Virus record (IMG/VR): IMGVR_UViG_3300045988_069061
DNA: 64,000 nucleotides
From: a virus
Strand: one strand, 5' to 3'
Shown here: piece by piece, positions 49,633 to 50,193 of the stretch
How positions within the stretch are numbered: the stretch's first letter is position 1
How the letters are laid out: the number at the start of each line of letters is the position of its first letter
The notes under the pieces: generated by a model
Database searches by the model: none
Told to the model about the DNA's origin: nothing
What the model saw: only the letters and a program-made list of their open reading frames with translations
Made by a program: the position numbers and the translations under genes

Positions 49633-50193
49633 ATGAAAAAGACAATTGAAATTGAATGTCCAGATGGTTATAAACCCATCTATAATGCCGAAACTGGCAA
49701 TGTTGAAATCGTTCCAGAAAACATTATGGGACGGATAAGAACCTATGAGGATGCTGTAAACTATCTAGGGTGTGTTACTAGAGATACTATTTACTACAAT
49801 AGATCTGTAAATTCTCTAGCTAAGTTGCAGACAGTCTTGGATGCGCTAAATGAAGGTCACAAGTTCAATCTGTTAACTGGTACTATATGGTATCCCTGGG
49901 TTCGCTTCTTTAGAATGAAATCAGTTCCGAAGGATGCAGAAGTCATTGGTCACTTCCGTTATCAGGGCGAGAAATTCGCGTTGGTGGGCGGCGGCGCGTA
50001 TTGTGGCGGCCATGCGGGTCTCGGCTTTTTCAATTCTGGCCATGACGTCGGCAATGCCAGTTCCAGTGTCGGGATGCTTGCGTGCAAATCTGAAGAGATT
50101 GCCAAATACGTATCAACCCAGTTTGGAAAGCTAGTGTTCGATGCTTGTTTTGCAAGACATTTCAAGGGTGAAGAATTTGAATGGCTTGACTAA
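49633..50193 (+). CDS. DGR target gene 2 (186 aa) carrying a remote variable repeat VR2
   Basis: Contains LVGGGAYCGGHAGLGFFNSGHDVGNASSSVG, homologous to the C-terminus of target 1 (LVGGDAYGGSGAGLGYFASSNVVGVASS). Encoded by a GC-rich island in an AT-rich gene. Confidence 0.6.
   Translation: MKKTIEIECPDGYKPIYNAETGNVEIVPENIMGRIRTYEDAVNYLGCVTRDTIYYNRSVNSLAKLQTVLDALNEGHKFNLLTGTIWYPWVRFFRMKSVPKDAEVIGHFRYQGEKFALVGGGAYCGGHAGLGFFNSGHDVGNASSSVGMLACKSEEIAKYVSTQFGKLVFDACFARHFKGEEFEWLD
49995..50078 (+). repeat. DGR variable repeat VR2 (remote, ~27.5 kb from TR)
   Basis: Aligns to the sense strand of TR (revcomp of 22121-22219). Over ~84 nt every mismatch (about 20) falls at a TR adenine. Confidence 0.7.

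Follow-up and report, generated by a model that had tools for sequence, protein, structure and literature searches.

A very probable second target gene, remote from the reverse transcriptase, of a DGR in TAG-recoded gut phages

Results

A variable repeat inside a gene of the tRNA island

The DNA analysed here (IMG/VR record IMGVR_UViG_3300045988_069061, 64,000 nucleotides taken as a whole, hereafter the window) carries at 49633..50193 on the plus strand an open reading frame of 186 aa ending with TAA, as a sequence-only reading of this DNA had proposed. The gene contains no in-frame TAG, and residues 25-176 of its product match phrog_11581, a family of unknown function (E 5.6e-17). Its location in a tRNA island is borne out by a tRNA-His whose end lies 30 nt before the start codon and by a tRNA-Ser about 1 kb downstream. 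Two overlapping reading frames (49934..50134, plus strand, and 49962..50165, minus strand), considered spurious in the sequence-only reading, are indeed found inside the conserved real gene.

A GC-rich island resembling a variable repeat had been placed at 49995-50078 within this gene. The island exists, and its boundaries are better set at 49982..50073 on the plus strand, a segment of 92 nt covering codons 117-147 (second variable repeat, VR2) with a GC content of 63%, against 39% in the remaining gene and 35% in the window. In a three-way ungapped register, VR2 is aligned with the minus-strand template repeat (TR) at 22215-22124 over the 92 nt with zero gaps and 20 mismatches. All 20 are located at the 30 TR adenines (15 A>G, 3 A>T and 2 A>C; P = 3.6e-13 for such a placement by chance), and 21 of the 22 mismatches of the first variable repeat, VR1, are also at adenines. 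The earlier claim of about 20 mismatches, all at TR adenines, is thus confirmed, and a spread of the mismatches over the four bases was not seen.

When the whole 64-kb window was searched for repeats, 49966-50073 was recovered as the inverted-repeat partner of 22126-22231 and 22325-22416, with a VR2/TR complementarity of 84% in that search and of 78% (72/92) in the 92-nt register. A TR-derived pattern with every A replaced by N has exactly three matches in the window, for 0 expected by chance, and VR2 recoded to tolerate adenines (C>M, G>R, T>W) matches only VR2 itself and the TR. The window holds one RT/TR; TR and VR2 are on opposite strands and 27.8 kb apart, close to the 27.5 kb estimated before. 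The A-to-N nature of all differences, the absence of another DGR in the window and the distance of less than 50 kb from the reverse transcriptase correspond to the definition of a non-adjacent target by Wu et al. 2018. At the protein level, the VR2-encoded peptide LVGGGAYCGGHAGLGFFNSGHDVGNASSSVG is the same as the VR1-encoded one at 19 of 31 residues; the announced homology with the VR1-encoded C-terminus is therefore real, and it is confined to the VR module.

The DGR cassette at 22 kb

The 22-kb region contains on the minus strand, in order, a gene ending in the GC-rich VR1, the A-rich non-coding TR and fragments of a reverse transcriptase (RT). The TR (22122..22219, minus strand, 30 adenines) lies between the VR1 target and the RT; its core matching VR2 is 22124-22215, and it is identical in most relatives. 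VR1 (22323..22420, minus strand), with its 22 mismatches to the TR over 98 nt, forms the 3' end of the first target gene (22298..24115, minus strand), which has 6 in-frame TAG codons and encodes a tail protein of 605 aa if TAG is a sense codon. Translated with TAG as Gln, this protein matches phrog_5302 (E 3.8e-82), and its C-terminal domain has zero matches in Pfam/NCBIfam. The RT gene (20706..21980, minus strand, about 424 aa, 3-4 in-frame TAG) encodes a GNYLSQ (GxxxSQ) motif and matches RVT_1 (E 1e-19) and phrog_1423 (E 4e-113); it is of DGR type, and its reading frame is uninterrupted only if TAG is translated. The RT and the fibre-like protein said to lie next to it are both there, each as a single intact protein only under this reading of TAG. 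The standard code splits the RT (20706-21980) into three ORFs of 126, 122 and 104 aa and leaves the tail-protein target also in pieces, the 3' piece being identical to database entry P0389, annotated there as a 204-aa protein. The 'fragmented RT' reported in recoded phages may in part be an annotation artefact.

Genome organization and TAG recoding

The minus-strand block, from 145 to about 38000, is coherent only if TAG is read as sense: in that case long ORFs can encode 17368 aa, versus 5598 aa with the standard code, and every late gene contains 6-41 in-frame TAG, which corresponds to about 2.4% of codons. The structural genes that can be recognised all belong to this block. The plus-strand block begins at about 41.5 kb (41500-64000) and contains, besides the tRNA island, genes for an SPFH protein and an AAA ATPase and others of unknown function. 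In-frame TAG is absent from its real genes; the rate seen in late genes would predict about 4.5 in the VR2 gene, which has 0. An amber-suppressor tRNA with anticodon CTA (40650..40722, minus strand, labelled tRNA-Pyl by ARAGORN) is located between the two blocks, and it would be needed for translating the RT and the VR1 target and not the VR2 gene. The two divergent gene blocks, the tRNA island and the suppressor tRNA recall the layout described for the Zeta crAss-like phages (PMC12386605). The TerL is 25-28% identical to Crassvirales TerL from GenBank and 43-44% identical to that of unannotated gut contigs. The DGR arrangement is conserved in a clade of TAG-recoded gut phages of ~185-192 kb that appear distantly crAss-like.

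The cumulative GC-skew has its minimum at about 41-43 kb, between the divergent blocks, the skew being confounded by coding-strand bias, and both target genes are directed away from this minimum. For the BPP-1 DGR reconstituted in E. coli, editing was 7-44-fold better for targets that are co-directional with replication and so point away from the origin (PMC12875486). If the skew minimum were the replication origin, both VRs would have the orientation favoured for editing, an inference only.

Several other elements were noticed in the window. Near the skew minimum, an exact tandem pair of a 48-nt unit occupies an intergenic region (42838-42933, plus strand) and is a candidate origin- or promoter-associated repeat. 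A full-length tmRNA (63132-63680, plus strand; Rfam 72.7 bits, E 2.4e-26) was missed by ARAGORN, as were four extra plus-strand tRNAs given by Rfam (54637-54700, 55584-55660, 61207-61279 and 63704-63775), with which the island holds at least 18 tRNAs. In the minus-strand gene 145-2493, a 54-nt tandem duplication (98% identical, 938-1045) doubles the 18-residue segment CTFKEDVSNTTFNSMLDN of a 782-aa tail-fibre-like protein. The SPFH/Band 7 (flotillin-like) protein (51577-54087, plus strand) has 657 aa with a long Ala/Glu/Lys-rich repetitive region, and it is preceded by a 172-aa membrane protein, like an NfeD-SPFH pair; the pair is not conserved in a 98-kb relative.

The 186-aa protein: fold, family and possible place in the virion

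In the 186-aa protein the variable segment is internal (residues 117-147) and is followed by about 40 residues of conserved helices, with the family-wide motif EIAKY.S.QFGKLVF.A.F, whereas VR1 has the C-terminal position in its protein. A profile search retrieved 1411 proteins, and the family, whose members are for the most part stand-alone proteins of 180-215 aa, forms 242 clusters at 50% identity; a Gly-rich scaffold is conserved throughout it (LVGG.A..G...AGLG.F.S..GVG....GF.L.C). The two targets are similar over 31 residues at 61% identity by BLASTP and over 38 columns (E 4e-9) in a profile-profile comparison, and the homology of the VR2 protein with the tail protein is limited to this Gly-rich VR module of 31-38 residues.

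The AlphaFold model of the protein, built on a deeper alignment, has a pLDDT of 88.7 and a pTM of 0.81; a shallow alignment of close homologues gave a pLDDT of 47. Foldseek of this model against the PDB returned nothing matching, C-type lectins included (best E 0.41, TM 0.18), and the modelled fold does not appear to be the C-type lectin/FGE-sulfatase-like fold of the Mtd, TvpA and TaqVP type. The protein had no match in Pfam/NCBIfam or by profile search against PDB sequences, and its structural matches in BFVD were uncharacterised gut-phage and crAss-like proteins only. Among GenBank phages, no match was found for the 47-53 kb region (megablast) or for the protein (tblastn). In the sequence TAATG, the VR2 stop codon shares bases with the ATG of an ORF of 96 aa whose N-terminus resembles a signal peptide, and a 60-aa ORF with two hydrophobic segments comes next (50190-50646, plus strand); this layout suggests a possible translational coupling of the VR2 gene to small envelope proteins.

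We consider it most likely that the 186-aa protein is a small binder, with a variable host molecule as its ligand. As to its belonging to the virion, our judgement is divided. It is quite possible that it is a virion component, namely a small accessory receptor-binding or adhesin subunit on the tail encoded outside the structural block, since the known phage DGR targets are nearly all tail or receptor-binding proteins (PMC10743442, PMC8144416), its VR module is the same as that of the tail protein, and its variable positions are rich in Tyr/Asn/Ser/Asp/Gly, as is typical of binding surfaces. Against this reading, the gene is placed in the divergent TAG-free block with tRNAs, the AAA ATPase and non-structural genes both in this lineage and in the smaller one described below, every recognisable structural gene sits in the recoded block, and no similarity to any solved tail or fibre structure was found. 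We lean, by a little, towards a non-virion protein, which would be intracellular or membrane-proximal.

Target recognition

The 3' ends of the VRs have GTCGGG in common, where the TR has GTCGAG, position 50072 being an invariant G; no longer IMH-like block common to VR1 and VR2 was found beyond it. An IMH or hairpin 3' of each VR, whose presence the sequence-only reading had suggested checking, is not convincingly present. The hairpin predicted 3' of VR2 (50084..50102, plus strand, GCAAATCT-GAAG-AGATTGC) has its stem broken in relatives by a common AGA>AAA variant, and the one predicted 3' of VR1 (22311..22324, minus strand, TTCAG-GACT-CTGAA) is compensated in five genomes (TTTAG/CTAAA) and mismatched in seven (TTCAG/CTAAA), a mixed picture; no conserved hairpin was found downstream of either VR among the relatives. 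No Avd-type accessory gene was found, there being no ORF between TR and RT, and a 125-aa ORF downstream of the RT has no match in Pfam or NCBIfam. An accessory protein (Avd or HRDC) is not universal among DGRs. The crAss-type DGRs have been reported without avd (PMC7290462). The roughly 62 fixed bases of homology over 92 nt may be sufficient for the recognition of the remote site.

Variation of VR2 among related genomes

The VR2 gene was found in 39 IMG/VR contigs, the relatives having sizes of 183-192 kb. The variability of each column was determined with the window and 20 close relatives (21 genomes). Among the TR-adenine columns 26 of 30 are variable, against 1 of 62 for the other VR columns and 21 of 469 in the remaining gene; outside its hypervariable positions the scaffold is under strong purifying selection. 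The VR2 sequence is unique in each of the 24 genomes compared, so that the invariance which would have betrayed an inactive copy was not observed. About 11 positions templated by AAY are hypervariable in the protein and essentially devoid of K/Q/E/M/W, as predicted from AAY>NNY, and four TR-adenine positions are an invariant G in VR2, giving Gly codons.

VR2 was also compared with the TR of its own genome in the 28 VR2-gene genomes that also yielded the RT/TR/VR1 locus. Each VR2 has 15-25 adenine mismatches to its own TR, with zero at other bases in 22 of the 28 genomes. Four C>T changes in the TR of two genomes (L074, L073) are also carried by the VR1 and VR2 of those genomes, one T>C change in the L061 TR is found in L061 VR1 and VR2 as well, and in L047, whose TR is without four 5' adenines (A>G), VR1 and VR2 follow. 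This reappearance of TR changes in VR1 and VR2 of the same genome is the comparative equivalent of marker transfer and shows that information passes from the TR to both VRs. The TR of L071 shows six A>N changes where its VRs now mismatch; TRs are not wholly immune to change, possibly by back-transfer from a VR.

The arrangement itself is constant, TR and VR2 being on opposite strands at 25.0-30.7 kb from each other in 28 of 28 genomes, with two seeming exceptions to the spacing that are circular permutations. A third VR was not found: the TR(A>N) scan of IMG/VR gives at most 3 matches per contig, and 12 near-complete genomes hold exactly TR, VR1 and VR2, as does the window.

These data are hardly compatible with VR2 being a decayed or inactive relic, that is, an old duplicate of the VR module that is no longer rewritten. 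Such a reading could draw on the lack of a recognisable IMH or conserved hairpin beside VR2, on its position inside the gene instead of at the 3' end, and on the most divergent relatives (L036, L039), in which the 5' half of VR2 shows a deletion of 3 nt as well as mismatches at bases other than adenine. A relic would nevertheless not be expected to differ in all 24 genomes at TR-adenine columns exclusively, to show the recent non-adenine changes of the TR of its own genome, or to sit in an otherwise near-invariant gene, and we judge this reading very improbable. From the comparison of the genomes, VR2 thus appears to be actively diversified, and L036 and L039 may represent a partial, lineage-specific decay of targeting. 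The VR2 of L014 carries a clean in-frame 6-nt deletion between two CCAAT repeats; the VR2 indels suggest slippage during homing.

VR2 could also have been diversified second-hand, by homologous recombination or gene conversion from VR1, since both repeats are in one replicating genome and are identical at 77 of 92 nt in the window, which is enough for recombination. At the 19 hypervariable adenine positions, however, the similarity of VR1 and VR2 is 0.314 in the same genome and 0.306 across genomes, and 1896 of 5000 permutations reach the observed within-genome value. Gene conversion from VR1 was rejected on this permutation test, and a second-hand origin is, in our opinion, scarcely credible. 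Since the same-genome similarity is at the cross-genome level, VR2 is diversified directly and independently of VR1; the VRs are unique in each of the 24 genomes, and the substitution spectra of the two repeats are near-identical. Finally, ordinary diversifying selection or an assembly artefact of the GC-rich repeat, unrelated to the RT, has a negligible probability: repeats can mis-assemble in metagenomes, which is nothing specific to this case, whereas 39 independent contigs agree in the context of the gene, the variation is strictly at TR-adenine columns, the residues are restricted to the NNY-encoded set and the TR marker changes are co-inherited by the VRs.

Mutational spectrum at adenines followed by G

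Whereas the AAY adenines display a random spectrum, all eight TR adenines that precede a G (VR2 positions 49983, 49986, 49990, 50008, 50016, 50023, 50050 and 50072) correspond to G in 96% of the VR1 and VR2 cells (n = 304). At the three AG sites that are synonymous third-codon positions, 111 G, 3 A, 0 C and 0 T were counted, and in distant TR/VR1 pairs (11 pairs with 7 distinct TRs; L083, L084, L103, L106-L108) the AG sites are G in 94% (n = 86). According to published data on the BPP-1 RT, misincorporation depends on the 3' neighbour, and in vivo the error made most often is C. Given this context bias and this commonest error, the restriction of AG sites to A or G can be understood. Protein-level selection cannot act on the synonymous AG sites, and the RT context bias explains neither the near-fixation of G at these sites nor the conservation of A in the TRs.

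Recurrence of the target family in a smaller crAss-like lineage

A sub-family of 206 aa, about 31% identical to the 186-aa protein of the window, is encoded on phage contigs of about 98 kb (ENA contigs L121 and L122) that belong to a different, smaller crAss-like lineage. Its gene (L121:10001-10621) lies in the early block among tRNA genes, upstream of an orthologue of the AAA ATPase (44% identity). The idea that the SPFH and NfeD-like genes are syntenic with the VR2 gene was considered and rejected, the 98-kb phage sharing only the AAA ATPase.

The 206-aa sub-family is near-invariant except for 11 columns in the segment equivalent to the VR, where 2 of 241 residues are K/Q/E/M/W, a group that makes up 25% of the rest of the protein. 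This residue spectrum is the signature of AAY>NNY mutagenesis, and the attribution of the sub-family to a DGR is based on this hypervariability pattern. No TR-like repeat was found within 10 kb on either side of the 206-aa gene; therefore this target, too, would be remote. When IMG/VR was scanned for its TR with a degenerate pattern, 0 matches were obtained; this lineage is absent from IMG/VR, where only relatives at 43-49% identity occur, and the alignment of the 206-aa VR segment to the collected RT loci matched only unrelated VR1s. In another family member (L125), the segment is A/T-rich and looks undiversified, so that not all members of the family are DGR targets. On these sequence patterns, the VR2 protein family would be a recurrent hypermutation target in crAss-like phages.

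Discussion

The segment 49982-50073 is very probably a true second target, VR2, of a single DGR located about 28 kb away on the opposite strand. The proposal of the sequence-only reading, that the DGR diversifies both the fibre-like protein beside the RT and the remote 186-aa protein, is supported by the mismatches, by the population variation and by the transfer of TR markers. The mechanism would be the standard mutagenic retrohoming, in which the RT copies the TR RNA into a cDNA randomised at adenines. This cDNA would then take the place of one of the two homologous repeats, in the neighbouring tail-protein gene (VR1) or in trans (VR2). Each VR is rewritten independently of the other. Owing to its in-frame TAG codons, the RT could presumably be produced only after the suppressor tRNA acts, and diversification should be late, on replicating genomes. 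The VR2 gene being TAG-free and in the early/replication block, the new variants would therefore be expressed early in the next infection.

A non-adjacent target of a phage DGR is an already known architecture: for many DGRs associated with phages, Wu et al. 2018 noted a target that is not adjacent but lies within 50 kb (PMC5758913). As in those phage systems, one target is beside the TR/RT, another is elsewhere at less than 50 kb, and the differences from the TR are at adenines only. In contrast to them, the second target reported here belongs to an uncharacterised family of about 190 aa with no Pfam domain and no CLec match, it is encoded on the other strand, within the early TAG-free block of a phage with a recoded stop codon, and its activity is shown by population data and by the co-transfer of TR markers, beyond the TR/VR match alone. 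The novelty lies in what the second target is and where it is encoded, in its recurrence and in how strong the evidence for its activity is.

With the BPP-1 DGR and its target Mtd (Guo et al. 2011, PMC3240598; PMC12875486), the present system shares a GxxxSQ RT, adenine-specific substitutions, an A-rich TR in which AAY codons predominate, and a tail protein whose very C-terminal end is encoded by the VR (here VR1). It differs in that no Avd and no GC-rich IMH with a conserved stem-loop were detected, in having two targets, one of them 28 kb off, and in the requirement of the RT for amber suppression. The two-target DGRs nd4 and nd12, with tentaclins (PMC10743442), likewise use one TR for two proteins unrelated outside the VR-encoded segment, but both of their targets are in the cassette with predicted C-type lectin domains, the tentaclins having Ig-like domains, whereas the second target here is remote and single-domain with no CLec or Ig match.

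The DGRs of Zeta/Epsilon crAss-like phages (PMC12386605, PMC11054128) and of crAssphage LMMB (PMC7290462) also close the structural block with a cassette ordered target-VR-TR-RT; they likewise have no Avd, amber codons inside the RT genes, a suppressor tRNA(CTA) and, in Zeta, the GxxxSQ motif. The targets reported in these three papers are only RT-adjacent tail-fibre or RBP genes, with no remote second target, and the present phage is further distinguished by the low TerL identity to Crassvirales and the lack of a GenBank phage match for its VR2 region. Multi-target cellular DGRs (Treponema denticola, Legionella, cyanobacteria; PMC4891356, PMC7517822, PMC10907252) resemble it in that the cDNA acts in trans on dispersed VRs, and some of their targets are intracellular and not at the surface. 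Those systems are chromosomal, with CLec-fold targets often fused to signalling/STAND domains, whereas the system described here is in a phage genome of lytic type with a small stand-alone target.

A further, more speculative combination may be considered, which we hold to be possible but rather unlikely: the 186-aa family would be a non-virion, early-expressed target with a fold unseen among DGR targets, and would represent a widespread, overlooked class in crAss-like phages that is always far from the RT. Its members could be, for example, intracellular or membrane-proximal binders of a variable host factor such as a component of defence or of surface biogenesis. If so, the class would be invisible to cassette-based surveys because of its constant distance from the RT. 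Metagenome DGR surveys look only beside the RT, Roux et al. 2021 having indicated that their own survey was unable to see remote targets, and the standard-code annotation fragments the RT and the targets in recoded phages.

Our results indicate that abundant gut phages can direct one mutagenic template to two genes that differ in kind, and the VR2 gene is the only such target here with evidence of population activity that matches that of the tail protein. With two targets of opposite orientation on either side of a putative origin, these phages lend themselves naturally to testing the recently described dependence of DGR editing on replication orientation. If the 186-aa protein is non-virion, phage DGRs would serve more than receptor switching, and this family would be a place to seek hypervariable phage-host interaction inside the cell.
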